Assembly (NCBI GenBank): GCA_964106915.2
Contig: OZ066925.1
From: Podarcis gaigeae
Lineage: Eukaryota
Length of the DNA stretch: 64,000 bases
Direction: 5' to 3' (one strand)
The translations under genes and the position numbers were made by a program. This document shows positions 4,636 to 57,067 of the stretch, in pieces. Numbering within the stretch: the first letter of the stretch is position 1; each line of letters opens with the position of its first letter. The notes beneath the pieces were generated by a model, which was not told where the DNA came from, ran no database searches, and saw nothing but the letters and a program-made list of their open reading frames with translations.

Positions 4636-4690
4636 CATTGTAAATGGGCTGACCTTCTTAGGCTTCTCTTTGCTTGGCTTTTCTTTACTG
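4636..4690 (-). CDS. ABCB1: ABCB1 second coding exon
   Basis: tgttcAG|C AGT AAA...ACA ATG|GTAAG; encodes SKEKPSKEKPKKVSPFTM; phase 2 to 0 joins both neighbouring exons in frame. Confidence 0.88.
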
Positions 4691-8309: not shown

Positions 8310-8401
8310 CTTTTCCTTTCATCTTGAGAAGCATTATTTCTTTCAGCCATCTCTTCAAGCTTTCCGTTCATGTTTGCCTTTGCTTGGCTCTCTGATGCCA
8401 T
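8310..8401 (-). CDS. ABCB1: ABCB1 first coding exon (exon 2; full exon 8310-8407 with a 6-nt leader GCAGAA)
   Basis: catcAG|GCAGAA ATG GCA... encodes MASESQAKANMNGKLEEMAERNNASQDERK, then AG|GTGGGT; phase 2 matches the next exon. The short pre-ATG leader mirrors mammalian ABCB1 exon 2. Confidence 0.85.
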
Positions 8402-8881
8402 TTCTGCCTGATGAGCAAATGGAATCTTTCAGGAAATTAAATAACAAACCACTTTAGGTCTTAAAGAAACATGCTGCTAATGGGACTACAACATGCACGC
8501 ACGCACACACGCAAGCAAATGCTGCTTTTAAAACAAATGGACTTCTCCAAAAATAGCATTCAGAACAACCGGCCAGTAATTATTTTATATTAAATAAAAT
8601 GCTACATTGGACAGCCTTCAGGTGGAGTAACATGAAATTCACCAGAGTAGTTTTTTTTTAAAAAAAATAAAACCCTGTTGTGTTGTTTCATTTAAATTTG
8701 GGCATACATTAATATGGATTTTGGATCCCTGATTGAAATAGTTTTGTGGAATTAATTAGAGTGAAAAAAGGACCAAAGTACAGTTTTCTGTTTAATAGTT
8801 TGGCACTCTCACTCTCACTTTCACACACTCAGTCTCTGCTTTTTTAAAACACAGCATTTAAGTGTACATGATACACAAAAC

Positions 8882-9056: not shown

Positions 9057-9094
9057 CACAAAACTCAGAAAAAAGTAGAAAAATCCAGACTTAC

Positions 9095-18710: not shown

Positions 18711-18721
18711 AAGGGAAATTA

Positions 18722-19038
18722 GGGACGTGGGTGGTGCTGTGGGTTAAACCACAGAGCCTAGGACTTGCCGATCAGTAGGTCGGCGGTTCGAATCCCCACG
18801 ATGGGGTGAGCTGCCGTTGTTTGGTCCCTGCTCCTGCCTACCTAGCAGTTTGAAAGCACGAAGTGCAAGTAGGTAAATGGTGTTTCCGTGCACTGCTCTG
18901 GTTCGCCAGAAGCGGCTTAGTCATGCTGGCCACATGACCTGGAAGCTGTACGCCGGCTCCCTCAGCCAATAAAGCAAGATGAGCGCTGCAACCCCAGAGT
19001 CGGTCACGACTGGACCTAATGGTCAGGGGTCCCTTTAC
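18722..19038 (+). mobile_element. Sauria SINE
   Basis: GGGACGTGGGTGGTGCTGTGGGTTAAACC head, B-box GGTTCGAATCC, ends CAGGGGTCCCTTTAC. Confidence 0.92.
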
Positions 19039-23994: not shown

Positions 23995-25560
23995 CTGAAT
24001 ACCCAGGAATACTTACCAGGGAGTAAGTCCTTACTGAACTCAGATGAATTTAAGATTGCACAGTGAGTCAGGAACATGAAGACAAAGGGGCTTGGGTCCC
24101 AAAATAGCTAGAAACAGACGTTTATTTTTAAAAATGATAAAATTCATTTTTAAAGCCTATTATGCCTTTCTCTCTAATTCTTTTGGTGCTCCCTTTAAAT
24201 CAGAACAATTCTGCATTTCAGAAATGCAAAATAATGCAAAATAATGAAATGCAAAATAATGTTTTAAATCGAGCCCCAGTTTCTACTATAATCATTCCTA
24301 AACAAAAGCACACTGTAAATAGATGTAGGCATTAAAATATGTCTCCCCCCATTATTTATTCTTTCAACTTCATATTATTTCTTAAATTGTTGAGGCCACA
24401 ATCAAATATAATTTCAGTGCATAACTCCATATTGGATATAATAGTTTAGAAAATGCTGAATAGATTGTTTATACAGTGGAATTATGAGTTTGTGCTGTAG
24501 GATAGTAAGCAGAAATCAGTTACTGTACCAGTTTCAAAATGTAGATTTCAGCTTGTCTACATTCACATGCAGTGATACTGGTTAGCACCATTTGCTGACT
24601 GACTAAGCATGCAATACTAACCCACTTACTGGGTAGTAAGTCCTTTGTAATTCATTGGGAATCACTTCTGAGTAGACATGGTTAGAATTGCAATCTGCAA
24701 TACTGTGAGCACTTACTTTAGAATAATAAACTCAGTGGGATTTTTTAATATACATGGATAGGCAGAAACTATAAATGCCTATCTCGTTCAGGAGGCAGTA
24801 AGTTTACTGAGCAAAACAGTGTTTTCCATTAGATTGAATGAAAATGTTTGTGTTATTTCATTTGCAGGTGGAGTACAAAATTTGCATAATTGCAATGTGT
24901 ACGTATGTCAAAAGGGATAAAACAGAAATAATGTATTGCCCAGGTGGTCTCAGTAAATTATGAAAGGCAATTTACTCCTGCAGTGGTAATACACCTTTAT
25001 TTGGGAATAAGTTGAGTTAACAGGCTTATTTCTGAATAAACAGGCTCAAACTGTAAACTTCAAGTGTGAAAATGGCCTAAGGACTCATAATTAATGAAGC
25101 ACAGCAACACTATTTTCACATGTCCCTGAAAGAGCTTCAATACATGAAGCTTAAATCACTAAGGCTCAGTCCTATACAGTAGTACCTCGGTTTATGAACA
25201 GTCCTGTTTACGAACTATTCAGTTTACGAAATCTGCAGAACAGGAAGCAGTGCTCCAGTTTGTGAACTTTACCTCAGTCTACGAATGGTGGAAGGGCACT
25301 GGTGGCGGGAGGCCTTATTAGGGAAAGTGTTCCTCGGTTTAAAAACGGATTTGGTTTAAGAACGCACTTCAGGAACAGATTAAGTTCGTAAACCGAGGTA
25401 CCACTGTATTCACTTAGCCAGGGTAAGTCCTATTGAGCTCAGTAGAATTTTTTTCTGAGTAGACATTTATGGGCTTGCACTGCACAGCAACATCCTAAAC
25501 TCATTTACTTGACTCAAGGAACTCAGTAGGACTGACTTTTGAGTGAAGATGACTAAGATT
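23995..25560. repeat. Cluster of short (about 80-bp) palindromic squamate MITE-like repeats
   Basis: Degenerate copies of gcaatcct...acttac-gggagtaagtcc-actgaactca...ttctgagtagacat...gattgc at about 23995, 24610, 24705, 24990, 25163-25481 and 25484; related copies at 12250 and 13901. Confidence 0.6.
25177..25406. mobile_element. pogo/Tigger-type MITE nested in an older palindromic repeat
   Basis: TA-CAGTAGTACCTCGGTTTA...TAAACCGAGGTACCACTG-TA. Confidence 0.85.
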
Positions 25561-25696
25561 AGACTTCACCCTTCTTGTATTCTATATCTCTTTGCAGAGA
25601 ACTTCTCTTCAGAATCTCTCCTCCATTAGATAGAAATGAGCAAAACAACATGCTTAAGCTACTAATGGGACACAAAACTGTGGAACTAAAGATGCC

Positions 25697-25999
25697 CACC
25701 TTGGAGTTCAGTCCATTCTTGCAGCTGTTTGCGTTCCCCTTCATAGCTCTGGGAAAGAACCATGACTCCTCACTTGGGGAAAGTTCTGCCTATTCCCTGC
25801 TAGGACAGAACCCATATCCTTGGCATGCTGGGTTTTCTAAAACAATGTTTTCAAAAATCTTAATTCTTGAATATTATTTTGCTTACATGTGTGATATAAA
25901 TATAGCTTGACGTATAGCAGGTGGCTGAGCTCACTTGCTTTGGTTATCTGGTTTGCATGCACAATTAGTTCTTGTTTTGTGCTTGGGACATATGTTGTT
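25697..25999 (+). repeat. Left arm of 303-bp inverted duplication
   Basis: Reverse complement of 31282-31584 except one C/T difference at 25911; the ORF track shows identical peptides from both arms. Confidence 0.97.
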
Positions 26000-27149
26000 T
26001 CCAGATGACCAGTTTATGGAGCATTCATCCTGAGTTGTTTGCACAGAGTTTGCTGGGAAGATATATGAAGCCATTTAGTGAGTATTCATTTTGATCTGTT
26101 TGTATACGATGCCTCTTTAAGCAATTGTTATCCAACACTTTCCAGTGCCTTTCCCCATCAAGTTCCTGACTGTAAAATTTCAGATTTATATAGAAATCTG
26201 TTTGTAGTTTGGATTGTGTTACATTGATACATTTTGGTCTGCTATCATGTGCTGTTGTATATTATCTGATTGAATGATAGAAGAGGTTGTAAGCACACAC
26301 ACATATACCTTAAATGAAAAGAATGCTTTTGCTGGGCTCTGTCTCTTTATTGTCCAGGTACAAATATATGATGCTGAAGTTGGTTACTAGTTCTCAGTTT
26401 CTTATTTGCATAGACGTTTGAAACACAGCTCAGTCAGAAAAAAAGCTGAAGTTGTTATGTCCCTAAAATAAGCTTTGACTGAGCTATATTTCAAACTGTC
26501 ATGCAAATATAGAGTAGGGGACTTCAGCATCGTTAAAAATACTGCCTTTCAAGATTTGACAATACACTTTTGATATGTATTTTAATATTGTTCAACACTG
26601 TCTAAACACAGGAGGCATGTAGAAATGTTTTTAATAAATAATAACCAATGTAGGCTTAATACTTAAACAGCAAATTGGGAATTTTTTTTTTAAGTGGCTT
26701 TACTGTCAGGTTGCGAATTTTCGGTACCTTGAAGATTTAACAGCTGTATTGTAACATGTTTGTGTGGACCATATGGCACCTTTTCATATGCATGACTTGC
26801 TATCTTCAGCCAGTGGATGCACCCATTTGAACATCTCTGTATGCCTATATAGACATGCCTTTACACACATGTGTGTAATGATGCCTGTAATCCACCAGGC
26901 TGTGAATTTTTATTTTATTTTATTGGGGGGGGGGGTGAACTGGACTCCGGTGCTTTTACCCTTCCACCTTCTCATGTATGTTAGCTGGGTAAATCATTAT
27001 CTGACGAATCAAGCTTTGGTGTCCAAAAACCTGACGCCGCTAAAAATTCTGTTTTGCCTTGTTGTAGGCTCCACACAAGCCTCTGTGTGTTTTGCTGTAA
27101 CCCACCAACGGGGCTCACACGAGCATTGCGAATAACAGTCTCAGCAACA

Positions 27150-28120
27150 AAGGAGCGTGACTTTTATATAAGCGCGAGGCAAGGAGGAGAAAGGAGAGCG
27201 AATGAATCAACTGCGGCGGGCGAGGGCGCACCTCCGCCTCACGAGCCGCTTCAACCCCCCGGCTACCCTCCGCCCCACACAACGCTCCCCCGCCCTTTCC
27301 GAGCCTCCTAACGGACATCTGCTGCCATTATGGGAGAACCCACGAGCCCCTTGCTTAGAAGACCAATCCCAGTTTTAGGTCCCGCCCCTGCTGGCGTGCC
27401 ATTGGCTGGCGGAGCCGGCGCTCTGCAGTCCCGGCCTCGGGGTGCTGCTGAGGCGATTTCTGAGGTGCAGCCGCGACTTCGAAGGCTCAGACGAGCGAGG
27501 AGCCGAGCGGAGCGGAGGAGGCGCTACTACCGCTGCTGGGACCTCCGGTCCCTTCTCGCGCCGTGGCCTCATGCCCAGCCGCGCTGCCCCCGTTTGGGTG
27601 CCTAGTGGAGGGGTTGCCGGGCTTCTCCTCCTCCTCAGCCGCCGCCTCTTGGGGCGGTAGCTGGGGCAGGGGAAAGGAGCGGCGGTAGAGCAGCCGCTGC
27701 CCCCCCTCACCCCCGGCGTTTCCCGCCCTCCGAACAAAGGCGCCGCCAGAGGCCCCCGCCTCGCCCTCCGCTGCGAGATGGCGTCGTTCAACATCGGGGG
27801 ACTCAACGCCTCCTCTCGGAGGAGAAGCGTCCATTCCCGCAACGCCACTGTCGAGAGGCGGAATCTCATCACCGTCTGCAGGTGAATTGGCTCCACCACA
27901 TACACACACACACGCAGGCACACGGGTTTTTCTCCGTATGTATGGGGCTGCATGTGTCGTCGATAACCCCGCTCAGTTGGCGGTCCTGCTCTGCAATGCG
28001 TGCCCAGCAGACCCCCGCTGTGCTTCAAGGGGCTTGCACAGTAAATGCCTTCAGGTTTTGCTGCCTTAATCCGGAGTAAGCGCCACCACCCCGCGCTCTC
28101 TTTTTCCGTTCCGCTCTTGC
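27150..28120 (+). promoter_or_regulatory. RUNDC3B: CpG island promoter of RUNDC3B
   Basis: Sharp GC/CpG enrichment; CCAAT at 27363, ATTGG at 27401, GC boxes CCGCCC at about 27270, 27290 and 27382. Confidence 0.88.
27778..27881 (+). CDS. RUNDC3B: RUNDC3B exon 1 (coding part)
   Basis: MASFNIGGLNASSRRRSVHSRNATVERRNLITVCR; GAGATGG Kozak; AG|GTGAAT donor. Confidence 0.93.
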
Positions 28121-28506
28121 ATTTAACAGCAGGGAGGGAACCCCAGCTTCTTCTCCCCCACGCTGGCTCTGAATGGTGGTGGGGTGTGTGAAAGGATGCT
28201 CAGGGCGCAGCTAAACTCTGCTTAGGTAGACTTCGGGAACAGAATAGGGAATTCCCTCCACTTTTGCATTCGTCTTCTCTCCTCCCCCTCCTTACACCTT
28301 CCTGATGCTGCCCCATGAGCATCTGTGGAGAACTCTTTCCAATCTTCCTTTCCCATCTGTGAATTTGCTACAGCTAATTGCATGTGCGCTGTTAGATGTG
28401 TCAAGTAGGGGATCCTGGACTGGAATGCGATCTGTGTTAGGGCATTTGTATGGTGAGTGAAGGTGTATAGCCTGCCTGATTCTGGCCCCATCAGGCAGTT
28501 TTGATG

Positions 28507-28638
28507 ATTCATAGAATTACAGAGTTGGAAGGGGCTAGTCATCTAGTCCAACCCCCTGCAATGCAGGACTCTTACGCTCAACATGGGGCTTGAACCCACA
28601 ATCCTGAGATTAAGAGTCTCATGCTGTACTGACTGTGA
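28507..28638 (-). mobile_element. tRNA-Lys(CTT)-derived SINE with CR1 3' tail
   Basis: Minus strand 28636-28575 reads cagtcagtacagcatgagactcttaatctcaggattgtgggttcaagccccatgttgagcg (degenerate tRNA-Lys-CTT), joined to cctgcattgcagggggttggactagatga...ttccaactct (CR1 tail). Confidence 0.8.
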
Positions 28639-31281
28639 ACGCCAAGAGAGAAATATTACTATACTAAGCCCTTGAGTTTGTATTTGCCCCATACAGGATG
28701 CAATCTCTCTACCTCGCAGCTCGGTTATACTTGAACCAGATTTCAGCTTGACAACAGTCTGTGTTGAATGTCATGGTACTACTCCAAACCATATGGAGGG
28801 AAAGTGATGTTCTATTAATGTGACTACGGAAATATGACTAAGGAAAACACAGGGTATGTCTCTGCAGAAGAGAACTGGTGTAACAGTAATGATGACAAGC
28901 TCCTATTACTAGGGGGGGGGGGAACCTTCCCCTTACCACAGATACTGTGTCTGGCTTAGTTCCCATGTGTTTGTGTCCCTGGAGTTCTTCCCCATACAAA
29001 TGAATGGTTTAGCTTTGCCATTCATTCTATTGGGGGGAGATTAAAGGCTGCTTTTGTGGCACTGTTATAGTAAAGGCAAAAAATGTCTCACACAGAATGG
29101 CATAGATTTCACTGAACCATGGTGTGTCACTGCATCTCACCAGGGAGCAGTCTCACCACCCACCTCCATCTTTAATAATGATATGCATTTTGCTGGTCCA
29201 TTGATATCAGCCTCTTCCTAGGATATATGTGCTTTCTCTCTGTAATGCTCCGTTCATAACATTCTGTCCAACTCCAGCAGTCTCAGAGTTTGACTATGAA
29301 TATGAAGTGTTACGTCTATCAAAACATTTGTCTGAGTTCCATAGGACACAATAAATAGGTTGAAGTCTAAGATATAGCTGAGGTAAGGCAAACCTACCAT
29401 TCTCACCAGACATTGGAATCCCTGAGTGTAGGAGCTTAGTATCTAACATGTCAGTGAACATCTCACATTTGGTTCTATGGGTAAAAAACCCCCACTGCAC
29501 TTAAGAACAAGGTTGCAGCGGAAGAAAACCTGTCAAGCCACCAGTGGGGATACCATGGGAGCTGCAGTGGTCCAGACATGCATATATGTCAACACTTCCA
29601 TCCCTTCAGGCTGTATTTGTGGGAGAGGCTTTTCTCTCTCTGTTATCTATGCAGGTTCTGAGTTGGAAGAAGGGAAAACATTCCTTATTTCATTGTTGGT
29701 ATGGGTTTGTGTTTGGTTGAGGGGAATGAGAGGGTGGCTAGATGTGAAAAAGCCAGATTGGCTCTGTTGCCTTTTCCAGAACAATGGTCTCAGTGCTGGT
29801 CTGATAGTATGGAGTGGTCAAGGTAAATGCAGGCATGTAATGGAACTGAAGAAAACAGGAGAAATGATCAGTCCCCTCTTTGCTCATCATGTGATGCTCC
29901 CTTCCCAAATTAATGACAAACAGAATAGTATTCCTTTTTCAATAGTTTTCCTTTATTTATTAAATCAGTAATATATACTTCAATTACATACACAAATAAA
30001 GAAAAAGCAATGCATTTGAATAAAAATTAATCATGGATAATATAAATTTGGGTCATTTCATTCACAATCCTGGGGGGTAGGGGTGGGAATATTATTACTA
30101 AGAGGCAGTAATATGTTTTTTTAAAGATTTGTTTTATTGTCTTCTAGGTCTTATGATATTCACACTTAAAACTGAAAAATTAATAAATATTCCAAATACT
30201 AGTGTATTTTACAGGAAGCATTTGAACATTGCTATCATCATATGTTGTAAATATATATTACAATCAGGAAGACTTGGCTTAAATGTGGTTATAGCCATAT
30301 TTATGTTTATGGGCGTTTTTCTTTGCCTTTGTGGAATTTCACATGCTCAGCTTCTTGTATAAGCTGGTATGCTGACACTTACACATGCATATTTACATGT
30401 TCCAGAGTCATAGATGGTTGGTAAATTAATGTTGAATGTTCAGGCACTGGAAATTCATTTATGTGTAATGGCACATTCTTGTAACCCTGCACAGGCAAAC
30501 ATGTATTTCTCTTACAAAAAAGAAGAAGAAAAAGGCTGGCACAGTTAAAACTAAGGCTCTAAACATTAATGGTGCCATTACTGTATTCTTAGTTGATCTA
30601 TTCTGTCGAAATTGCCTTTCATTTAGCTCTATACATTAGAAGTAGATTTTTCTGTATTATAGCATGTTAATTGTTTATTTTCAGTCAGAAAACCCCAGGG
30701 TTTAATTATCTCAACTTAGAACTATATTTGGGGAGGTTTTTTTAATGTGAACTGGGACACATTGTCATATCAAAATGTGAGTAAAAAAGAATGCTGTGGG
30801 TGTTGAACTCACACTGTGGGTAACTTTCAGTGAATTTAACACCCACAAACTTGTCATGTCTCACATAATTCAACTGATAGCCCTCTCCAAGTCCTGTTCT
30901 CCCCCTTTCATCCTCCAGATTTGTGCCACTTTGTGTCCTGTATTTAGTTTGTGTGAGAATTCATTGTAGTTTTAAAGTATGAAGAGAGACTAATGCTCTC
31001 CTCCCCTCTGCTGTAACAGAGAGATAAGGTGCGTACTTGCTGCCAATGTTTGATTTAAAAAAGCCTCGGAGCATATACTCAATTCCGAAGCTCTGTTATT
31101 CAACACTCGTTCAGTTCTTCTAGCAAAGCTTTGGAAATATGTACTTGCCTGCTCATTTGTAGCAGTCAGAATGGTCTTCAGGCAACCAAGCATAACCTCA
31201 TCCTTACTTCTGCATATGATTGTGCTCTCTCCTGTCAGATGTATCTACAAATACACCTTTCCATTATGTTTTTTGAATTGG

Positions 31282-31584
31282 AACAACATATGTCCCAAGC
31301 ACAAAACAAGAACTAATTGTGCATGCAAACCAGATAACCAAAGCAAGTGAGCTCAGCCACCTGCTATACATCAAGCTATATTTATATCACACATGTAAGC
31401 AAAATAATATTCAAGAATTAAGATTTTTGAAAACATTGTTTTAGAAAACCCAGCATGCCAAGGATATGGGTTCTGTCCTAGCAGGGAATAGGCAGAACTT
31501 TCCCCAAGTGAGGAGTCATGGTTCTTTCCCAGAGCTATGAAGGGGAACGCAAACAGCTGCAAGAATGGACTGAACTCCAAGGTG
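31282..31584 (-). repeat. Right arm of 303-bp inverted duplication (RUNDC3B intron 1)
   Basis: Reverse complement of 25697-25999. Confidence 0.97.
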
Positions 31585-32316
31585 CTGTGGCTGCTACATC
31601 TGCAGTCCAGTTTTGATACAGACAGGCTGAGTGCCTACCTGACAGCACCAGTAGCTGTGATTCTCCAGTTGAGTAAATGCAGCAATGGACTATAGGTGTT
31701 TATCATGCAACTAGTGAGATGGGGATGGGTGGGAGGGAGGTACTATTATGTATCCACATGAGTGGTGTTTTACTTTACCCATTTTATTATTTCAAAGTGT
31801 TTAATATCTAACAATTTTTTATTTATTTTTACAAATTGTGTAGTGTGTACCACTCAATTACTACTATCTGGTGGAAGAGAAATTAGGGCAAGCTCATTGG
31901 TCCCTCCCACATCATTGCGTTCCATTACCAGATTCATCATCTTCCACATACTAGAAGTCTATCAGGAAGTCTTCTGTGCTCATGTAGGCTGCCCATCTGA
32001 AGGAGTTTAGAATGCTCTTCCGGGGAACTAACTCAACACTTTTGATAAATACTTTGGATAATAGTACTTTGGATAATAGTAATCGGAACTTCTTAACAGA
32101 ACAAATATACTGCTTTGAAGAGGCACAAATCAACTGCTTGAATGGCTGTGGAGTAAAAGATATTTGCATACTAAGGTGGAATATAGTGAAGAAAACTCAA
32201 ATATTGTTGAAATCTAAATGTATTTGTTTTGGAAATTACAAACATCAGTGGTGTGCTTTTGTCAAGAAATATGCTTCTCTAAAATACTATGCTGTCCAAC
32301 CTGCATTATATTTTAA

Positions 32317-34568: not shown

Positions 34569-34650
34569 GAGACTTTTGCCTTTATTTCCTCCCTCCCGTT
34601 AAATCCCTCTCCTGCATTCTTAGCCAGCTGCTTCCTTCGCTCCCCACTTA

Positions 34651-35198
34651 AAATGTGGTTACAAAGCATAGATCCACATGGATCCTCAGGATCTTTGCAT
34701 TGGGTCACCCCAAATTCACCATCAGATCACATAGCATGTCCATGGCTACAGCCTGCCCCCCCCAAAAAAATCACGCACCCACTGTTGCCTGGGGCTGCAA
34801 TGGTGCAAAAATGTGGTTACAAAGCATGGATCCACATGGATTCTCAGGATCTTTGCATTGGGTCACCCCAAATTCACCATCAGATCACATAGCATGTCCA
34901 TGGCTACAGCCTGCACCAAAAAAATCACGCACCCACTGTTGCCTGGGGCTGCAATGGTGCAAAAACGTGGTTACCAAGCATGGATCCACAGGGATTCTCA
35001 GGATCTTTGCATTGGGTCACCCCAAATTCACCATCAGATCGCATAGCATGTCCATAGCTACAGCCTGCACCAAAAAAATCACGCACCCACTGTTGCCTGG
35101 GGCTGCAATGGTGCAAAAACGTGATTACAAAGCATGGATCCACAGGGATTCTCAGGATCTTTGCATTGGGTCACCCCAAATTCACCATCAGATCACAT
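34651..35198. repeat. Tandem array, about 154-bp unit x3.5
   Basis: Units begin at 34651, 34809, 34963 and 35117. Confidence 0.95.
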
Positions 35199-35435
35199 GT
35201 CTGTGGCCACAGCATGAAGCCCAAAAATGATACATCCACTGTTTCATTCAGAATGTTTTTTCCCTTGTTTTCCTCCTTTAAAAACGATGTGCGTGTTATG
35301 GTCAGGTGCGTGTTATAGAGCGAAAAATACGGTACTTTGGGGAGAAATGGACTGCAAGTGAATGATCACCAAGTGTGAAGCTTATTGCTTTGCTTATTGT
35401 TGTGTGACACTACTGTTTTCCTTCTGTCAGCTTGA

Positions 35436-41822: not shown

Positions 41823-42173
41823 AAAAGGTAAAGGGACCCCTGACCATTAGGTCCAGTTGTGACCGACTCTGGGGTTGTGGTGCTCATCTTGCTTTATTGG
41901 CCGAGGGAGCTGGCGTACAGCTTCTGGGTCATGTGGCCAGCGTGACCAAGCCGCTTCTGGCGAACCAAAGCAGCGCACGGAAACGCCATTTACCTTCCCC
42001 CTGGAGCGGTACCGATTTATCTACTTGCACTTTGATGTGCTTTCGAACTGCTAGGTTGGCAGGAGCAGGGACCGAGGAACGGGAGCTCACCCTGTCACGG
42101 TGATTCGAACTGCGACGTTCTGATCGGCAAGTCCTAGGCTCTGTGATTTAACCCACAGCGCCACCCGCCTCCC
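41823..42173 (-). mobile_element. Full-length Sauria SINE
   Basis: Perfect 13-bp TSD TATGTGTAAGATT at 41810-41822 and 42174-42186. Confidence 0.94.
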
Positions 42174-42194
42174 TATGTGTAAGATTGGGTATAA

Positions 42195-56604: not shown

Positions 56605-57062
56605 TAGAACAATCTGTCTTGAATAAGACAATTTGGTAAGGCATTATCTAGCTACTCTGGGAAAGGTTTTTGAGGAGCAGGTTATAATAAGTACATAAAA
56701 ATAAAGTGATGATTTAGGTCCACATGCTTTCATCTTAAAGCCAACTTGCTTACATGACATTTTATTAAATTTAATTCCATCTTCTCATTGCAAATAATAA
56801 GCATCAATTGCAGTTTAAGAAACCATACTCAGTTAAGACCAGAAGATACTCATACACATAAGTGTGTAACTTTGCTTAAACACCATCCTACAACTCCATA
56901 TCTTGTGTATGTGTAAAATTACAGGATGGTGTTTAAGCAAAGTAACACACCTATGTGCATCATCACTTCATATTTATGTACTTCTTATAACCTGCTCCTC
57001 AAAAACCTTTCCCAGTGTAGCTAGATAATGCCTTACCAAATGGTCTTATTCAAGACAGAATG

Positions 57063-57067
<5 letters not shown>
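56605..57067. repeat. Long imperfect inverted repeat (fold-back) in RUNDC3B intron 10
   Basis: 56613-56713 pairs with 56959-57059; 56855-56889 pairs with 56923-56957. Confidence 0.93.

Follow-up and report, generated by a model that had tools for sequence, protein, structure and literature searches.

Does a pair of nearly perfect inverted repeats around the promoter of one gene, set beside the main drug-efflux gene of vertebrates, form a switch, or is it the trace of a copying accident? The question arises from a stretch of 64,000 nucleotides of the lizard Podarcis gaigeae (contig OZ066925.1 of assembly GCA_964106915.2; the whole stretch is called the window below), in which two arms of 303 nt bracket the CpG island and first coding exon of RUNDC3B, with ABCB1 as the neighbouring gene. 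A first-pass annotation had seen here a potentially invertible promoter able to capture ABCB1, and had kept a recent, neutral templated insertion as the simpler explanation. Contigs that cross the left arm unbroken in two related species support the simpler explanation: the right arm very probably originated recently, as an inverted copy of the otherwise unique 303-nt left arm, which lies 5.3 kb away. Literature searches gave no paper on this locus in lizards among the titles listed.

Sequence and ancestry of the inverted pair

Four of 24 listed sequencing runs were compared with the window; all 24 consist of contigs assembled from short words, whose graph is identical for either orientation of the interval between the arms. 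X1 and X3, which come from different studies, are two samples of the window's own species (organism A); the window itself may derive from X1, and X3 is independent. Organisms B and E (runs X4 and X7) are related species. The features of the pair are as follows.

25697..25999, plus strand: left arm, the ancestral donor, upstream of the RUNDC3B CpG island; one contig of organism B, 25382-28564, and one of organism E, 25388-26041, cross it
31282..31584, minus strand: right arm, the derived inverted copy, in RUNDC3B intron 1, 3401 nt past the exon 1 donor; a separate 303-nt contig in X1 and X3
25911, plus strand: the sole arm-to-arm mismatch, C in the left arm and T in the right; C is the derived base

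Self-comparison and blastn (E 2e-154) reproduce the arms as annotated: they are reverse complements over 303 nt with the single mismatch, 99.7% identical, separated by 5282 nt, and their uninterrupted tracts of identity are 214 nt and 88 nt long. When the arm was used as a DNA query against its own genome (1.51 Gb, 211 contigs), the genome-wide search that the annotation had proposed, there were two matches, both local, in a search that skips very common words. Against five 200-kb control blocks taken at round positions of the same contig (1.0 Mb) the arm gave nothing below E 0.25, and Rfam gave no match to 25400-26300. The annotation had reported none of the usual marks of a transposable element, and none was found: the arm contains no terminal inverted repeat and has no tail, the copy has no polyA signal, and no target duplication abuts the right arm, where the only flanking direct repeat is a 6-mer that does not adjoin it. 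With dispersed copies, terminal repeats, tail and target duplication all lacking in these searches, a pair of miniature inverted-repeat transposable elements or short interspersed nuclear elements (SINEs) was rejected as a class for the arms. Nothing more than the arm appears to have been copied, since the 682 nt just inside the right arm (30600-31281) are single-copy in the genome. A larger insertion near the right arm was considered because no long contig was listed beyond 31584 in any of the four runs, and because organisms B and E lacked cover over some distance on the left side of the right arm (zero depth at 30824-31074). It was dropped in view of that single-copy DNA and of records missing from the contig listing; holes in the cover are not used as evidence.

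In both X1 and X3 the 303-nt sequence stands alone as a contig. The contigs around it stop at 25726, begin again at 25970 and stop once more at 31311, in each case 30 nt inside an arm. This is the pattern of a two-copy repeat. The depth of the 303-nt contig (66.4 against 25.7, 28.3 and 40.6 for neighbours in one sample, 20.2 against 7.9, 13.6 and 12.6 in the other) fits two copies, though depth is no copy number. Because contigs from two samples of the same species, sequenced in two studies, break exactly at the arm ends, the inverted pair is real and not a misassembly, which the annotation had named as an outcome that would undo its proposal. Near-perfect identity, the lack of any hallmark of origin and a genome search that passes over very common words might still suggest that the pair is an error of assembly or belongs to a family of dispersed transposons. 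Such an origin is exceedingly improbable: the break pattern recurs in the independent sample, the genome search gave its two local matches only, and true repeats in the neighbourhood gather thousands of contigs, which the arm does not.

The related species identify the older arm. In each of organisms B and E a single contig passes unbroken through the left arm and on into the inner segment, following the order of the window and reading T at 25911. It follows that the left arm is the older one, of which neither relative has a near-identical twin, and that the right arm was newly added to an interval that stands in its ancestral orientation in the window. The mismatch is therefore a T-to-C change (TG to CG) gained in the donor arm. 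The annotation had read the mismatch as CpG decay; the outgroup bases reverse that polarity, and decay at 25911 is rejected. A scar left by an inversion with staggered breaks was also rejected, the inner segment being collinear in the relatives; a flip followed by a flip back would need two events.

The age of the copy can be bracketed by divergence from the window, which amounts to 14 of 6055 bases in X3, 39 of 5061 in organism B and 99 of 5625 in organism E (long listed contigs only). The arms differ at 1 of 303 positions (95% confidence interval 0.008-1.8%). A difference this small has P 0.32 if the copy is as old as the split from organism B and 0.03 if it is as old as the split from organism E, and would fit a copy younger than the split from organism B, which stands at about 0.8% divergence.

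The same low divergence might have been produced in another way, if an old and diverged inverted pair had recently been homogenised by gene conversion in organism A. The right-hand site was not seen in the relatives, which leaves room for an old diverged copy there. Any shared 31-nt word, however, would break the left-arm contigs of organisms B and E, and none broke; nor does residual homology extend past either arm end, none being significant at 40, 100 or 500 nt (shuffle P 0.085-0.985). Homogenisation of an old pair is thus highly improbable, and a recent copying event remains the preferred account.

Origin of the copy

The copy probably came from one template switch during replication or break repair. 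A 3' end stalled or broken in RUNDC3B intron 1, the presumed start, would have paired with the opposite strand close to 26000 over the few bases in common (TGGAA); 303 nt would then have been copied before return to the original template, and the T-to-C change in the donor arm would have followed later. The simplest account would be a single switch onto the opposite strand, 5 kb off, with a return. The sequences at the two junctions are these.

31279..31283, plus strand: inner junction microhomology TGGAA, also present in the donor flank, reaching 3 nt past the arm and including a slip of one A; short enough for chance
31597..31615, plus strand: outer junction microhomeology, in which 17 of 22 columns match 25694-25673 in the donor flank at an offset of 10 nt

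An older two-piece inverted copy, for which a genome search gave no other copy, lies at 56605-57067 in a RUNDC3B intron and looks like an iterated template switch: 56923-56960 mirrors 56852-56889 (38 nt, 92%), and 56959-57067 mirrors 56605-56713 (109 nt, 94%).

It is likely that the promoter between the two arms is there by coincidence. Whole island-like stretches are contained in 618 of 9740 control intervals of 5282 nt. At 90% identity the controls and the window together hold 40 inverted pairs, 39 of them multicopy repeats, and low-copy local duplicate pairs of any age number 5 in the 1.0 Mb of control (1 inverted, 4 direct; low copy was judged within 1.06 Mb). One of the direct pairs, at about 5,164,342-5,171,670 in a control block, has copies of 553 nt that are 95.7% identical and 6.2 kb apart. 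In the window an 82% identical inverted pair, 18720-19038 and 41828-42175, which we take to be SINE-like, also encloses the island, and diverged inverted pairs around promoters are commonplace here. A tandem array with units of about 154-158 nt (34597-35243) adjoins a 150-nt run of N. We infer that a young pair is uncommon per megabase but that a few promoter brackets per genome are to be expected by chance. Promoter brackets are not rare in vertebrates, since about 1,400-1,600 human genes are flanked by inverted repeats according to the available part of PMC11794170.

Several observations weigh against a simple, inert copy. The empty ancestral site was not seen among the contig joints listed (15 of 199), and what happened at the junctions, a possible deletion included, and which way the copying went are read from the left-arm contigs. 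Neither was an empty allele seen in X1 or X3, whose contigs drop variants. The junction homologies are weak at both ends; the outer match of 17 in 22 columns has P 0.093 against 1000 shuffles and 0.010 against 4965 random pairs. Inverted pairs of at least 200 nt and at least 98% identity within 20 kb were absent from the 1.0 Mb of control, which places their frequency at an upper bound of about 3 per Mb. Lastly, the donor region is less diverged than the neighbouring contigs and has splice-like signals. Between 25388 and 26041 it differs from organism E at 4 of 654 positions where 12.5 were expected (post hoc P 0.005), and four donor-like sites occur on the left arm's minus strand (25934, 25886, 25773 and 25699), as they do in 0.14% of 6450 control windows. 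The copied DNA may therefore not be inert.

These last signals would be accounted for if the donor arm were a conserved minus-strand element, such as an upstream non-coding exon, a promoter or an enhancer of ABCB1. The copy would place that element in sense orientation shortly before RUNDC3B exon 2, as a new regulatory input or a cryptic exon, and three of the donor-like sites survive in sense in the copy, at 31347, 31395 and 31508. Human ABCB1, in the portion of PMC7654162 available, has an upstream promoter beyond RUNDC3B. Both the low divergence and the donor sites were, however, singled out post hoc; divergence is uneven over the 7 contigs compared (0.6-3.0%), the splice donor matrix is a crude one, and neither an acceptor-like site nor a polyA signal was found in the copy. 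A nearer candidate for a non-coding ABCB1 exon also exists on the minus strand, where a strong donor-like site at 9094, in CpG-poor surroundings some 690 nt upstream of the ABCB1 start exon, could mark the end of a non-coding first exon. A regulatory role for the arms is very unlikely, and a template-switch copy that is likely to be neutral and without function is the reading carried forward. Overall, the right arm is best read as an ordinary templated insertion, real, recent, of a known kind and likely neutral.

Predicted consequences of a flip for RUNDC3B and ABCB1

The features that a flip would bring together are the following.

27100..28200, no strand assigned: CpG island and RUNDC3B promoter, with CCAAT in both orientations, GC boxes and a TATA-like site at 27163-27172 (motif matches only)
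27778..27881, plus strand: coding part of RUNDC3B exon 1, ATG at 27778, 104 nt, 34 codons and 2 nt, phase-2 donor after 27881
8310..8407, minus strand: ABCB1 start-codon exon, 6 nt of untranslated region and 92 nt of coding sequence, phase-2 donor, acceptor at 8407
4636..4690, minus strand: next ABCB1 coding exon, phase-2 acceptor at 4690

The gene names lean on synteny. Three plus-strand exons downstream of RUNDC3B exon 1 match the Pfam RUN family PF02759 when queried directly (E 6e-4, 7e-7 and 5e-5); a PF02759 family search of the lizard's own genome gave 15 matches, none in the window, and exon 1 alone matched no Pfam family. The minus-strand exon at 1013-1138 matches solved chains of ABCB4 (E 2.5e-13) and ABCB1 (E 1e-11) about equally. 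RUNDC3B is the upstream neighbour of ABCB1 in humans (as described in parts of PMC7654162 and PMC6426934), and the anole has a single Abcb1 gene (in the available text of PMC4213008). The acceptor of the ABCB1 exon at 4690 is a tandem CAG-CAG (4688-4690, minus strand), which would permit alternative splicing by one codon.

As the annotation stated, both the island and coding exon 1 are enclosed between the arms; the island is the only island-like stretch in the window. The segment 27163-27405 has a TATA-like word on both strands, CCAAT both ways and GC boxes, and it is possible that the island already fires bidirectionally, toward ABCB1 as well, with no flip.

The flip itself would require that the arms recombine, and that the flipped allele, in which the CpG promoter and exon 1 of RUNDC3B would point the way ABCB1 does, either segregates or recurs often enough to matter. 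It is geometrically possible. The exon 1 donor would come to lie 20,993 nt above the acceptor at 8407, close to the 21 kb of the annotation. According to the part of PMC2583991 available, alpha-globin repeats 5 kb apart recombine with matches under 50 bp and mitotic thresholds are about 134-232 bp, so that the tracts of 214 and 88 nt are within the mitotic range, although they are below the meiotic estimate of 300-500 bp given there. The longer tract, 214 nt, is marginal for recombination. The arm is also less than half as long as the smallest repeat (654 bp) among 24 human inversions that arose through non-allelic homologous recombination (NAHR), while that survey, in the sections available, includes inversions that swap first exons or create fusion transcripts (HsInv0030 and HsInv1051; PMC6748972). 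The order through the left arm is the same in the window and in both related species. No site resembling a recombination signal lies within 100 nt of either arm, RAG-type signals being the only kind scanned.

A flipped allele would also be poorly suited to express ABCB1. Joined to the exon at 4690, RUNDC3B exon 1 is in frame; joined by default splicing at 8407 it is out of frame, as the annotation had worked out, and opens a frame of 47 codons, which runs across the ABCB1 ATG and ends 58 nt short of the next junction. An upstream frame that overlaps the start and stops ahead of a junction entails, by established rule, poor translation and transcript decay. Little P-glycoprotein and decay of the transcript are predicted for this reason. 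The RUNDC3B ATG has a strong Kozak context, with G at both -3 and +4. Translation might conceivably restart at an ATG further on in the same frame (exon position 58); an in-frame RUNDC3B-ABCB1 chimera would arise only by skipping the ABCB1 start exon. In the human ABCB1 fusions the donated exons are non-coding, and the promoter of RUNDC3B is the weaker one there (PMC6426934).

Rare ectopic recombination could flip the 5.3 kb, and would thereby strip RUNDC3B of its promoter and ATG; since these would be lost, a flipped allele should, it is predicted, either be purged or at best behave neutrally. A flip might plausibly occur now and then in single cells. An allele that segregates, or that recurs often enough to matter, is nevertheless very unlikely, as is a regulated flip. 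A programmed invertible promoter was rejected: a recombinase switch is defined by short recombinase sites and a cognate recombinase, whereas the arm is a plain ancestral copy with no RAG-type signal within 100 nt (no search for a recombinase gene was made). Positive support for the invertible promoter of the annotation's headline was not obtained; the identity tracts of marginal length, the coding exon 1 and the repeats of at least 654 bp in human NAHR inversions all tell against it.

The most consequential possibilities can be taken together, namely a RUNDC3B promoter cassette that flips recurrently in germline or soma, or a conserved regulatory exon from the ABCB1 side carried into RUNDC3B intron 1. 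Even jointly they are decidedly unlikely. Either of them, if true, would change the wiring of a xenobiotic pump and of the adjacent gene in a single lizard species, and would parallel in nature the promoter capture seen at ABCB1 in tumours. Should flipped molecules or arm-derived transcripts exist, an accident of 300 nt would have come to act as a regulatory switch next to the main drug-efflux gene of vertebrates.

Comparison with known systems

A parallel for the damage that a flip would do is the F8 intron 1 inversion of haemophilia A, where, in the accounts available, one repeat copy likewise lies in intron 1 and the flip severs promoter and exon 1 and breaks the gene. The F8 repeats are about 1 kb. 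They are longer than the lizard arms, the interval is 140 kb, and the inversion is documented in patients.

Human NAHR inversions such as HsInv0030 (CTRB1/CTRB2) and HsInv1051 (a CCDC144B fusion) resemble the lizard locus in that inverted repeats enclose a promoter and first exon, and the highly identical inverted repeats at both ends that characterise them are present here (99.7%). Their repeats, however, range from 654 bp to 24.2 kb and flips are observed, in the sections of PMC6748972 available, whereas the lizard repeat is 303 bp and known from one order. In the SLC25A40-ABCB1 and related tumour fusions a neighbour's promoter is set upstream of ABCB1 in the same orientation, as it would be by the flip. 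These fusions are somatic and drug-selected, and they work because the donor exons are non-coding and the ABCB1 frame stays intact (PMC6426934 and PMC7654162, in the parts available); in the lizard the donated exon, RUNDC3B exon 1, carries coding sequence that is not in frame with the ABCB1 start exon.

Class 2 templated sequence insertions share with the lizard copy the lack of target duplication and polyA tail, an intact donor and junction microhomology, which in the lizard is weak (Onozawa and Aplan 2016, PMC5110952, as far as that text was available). Their donors are distant and an RNA intermediate has been proposed; the lizard copy is local and inverted.

The best match is the inverted-duplication class of the 1000 Genomes survey (Sudmant et al. 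2015, PMC4617611). In the available portion of that study, inverted duplications account for 54% of 229 resolved human inversion sites and are the commonest kind of "inversion" call; nearly all are under 1 kb, they are inserted within 5 kb of the source, are not typically tied to retrotransposition and are attributed to replication errors. The lizard copy is likewise under 1 kb, inverted, about 5 kb from its source and free of retrotransposon marks. It differs in being from a lizard, in being present in both samples checked, and in a spacing of 5.28 kb, slightly over the quoted 5 kb. With 303 nt inverted near 5 kb from the source, one ancestral copy, intervening DNA that is not inverted and no retrotransposon product, the pair agrees with this class in every respect that could be tested. 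The locus thus provides a clean and dated example, in a reptile, of the commonest class of small inversion-like variant, and a marker at the level of the species.

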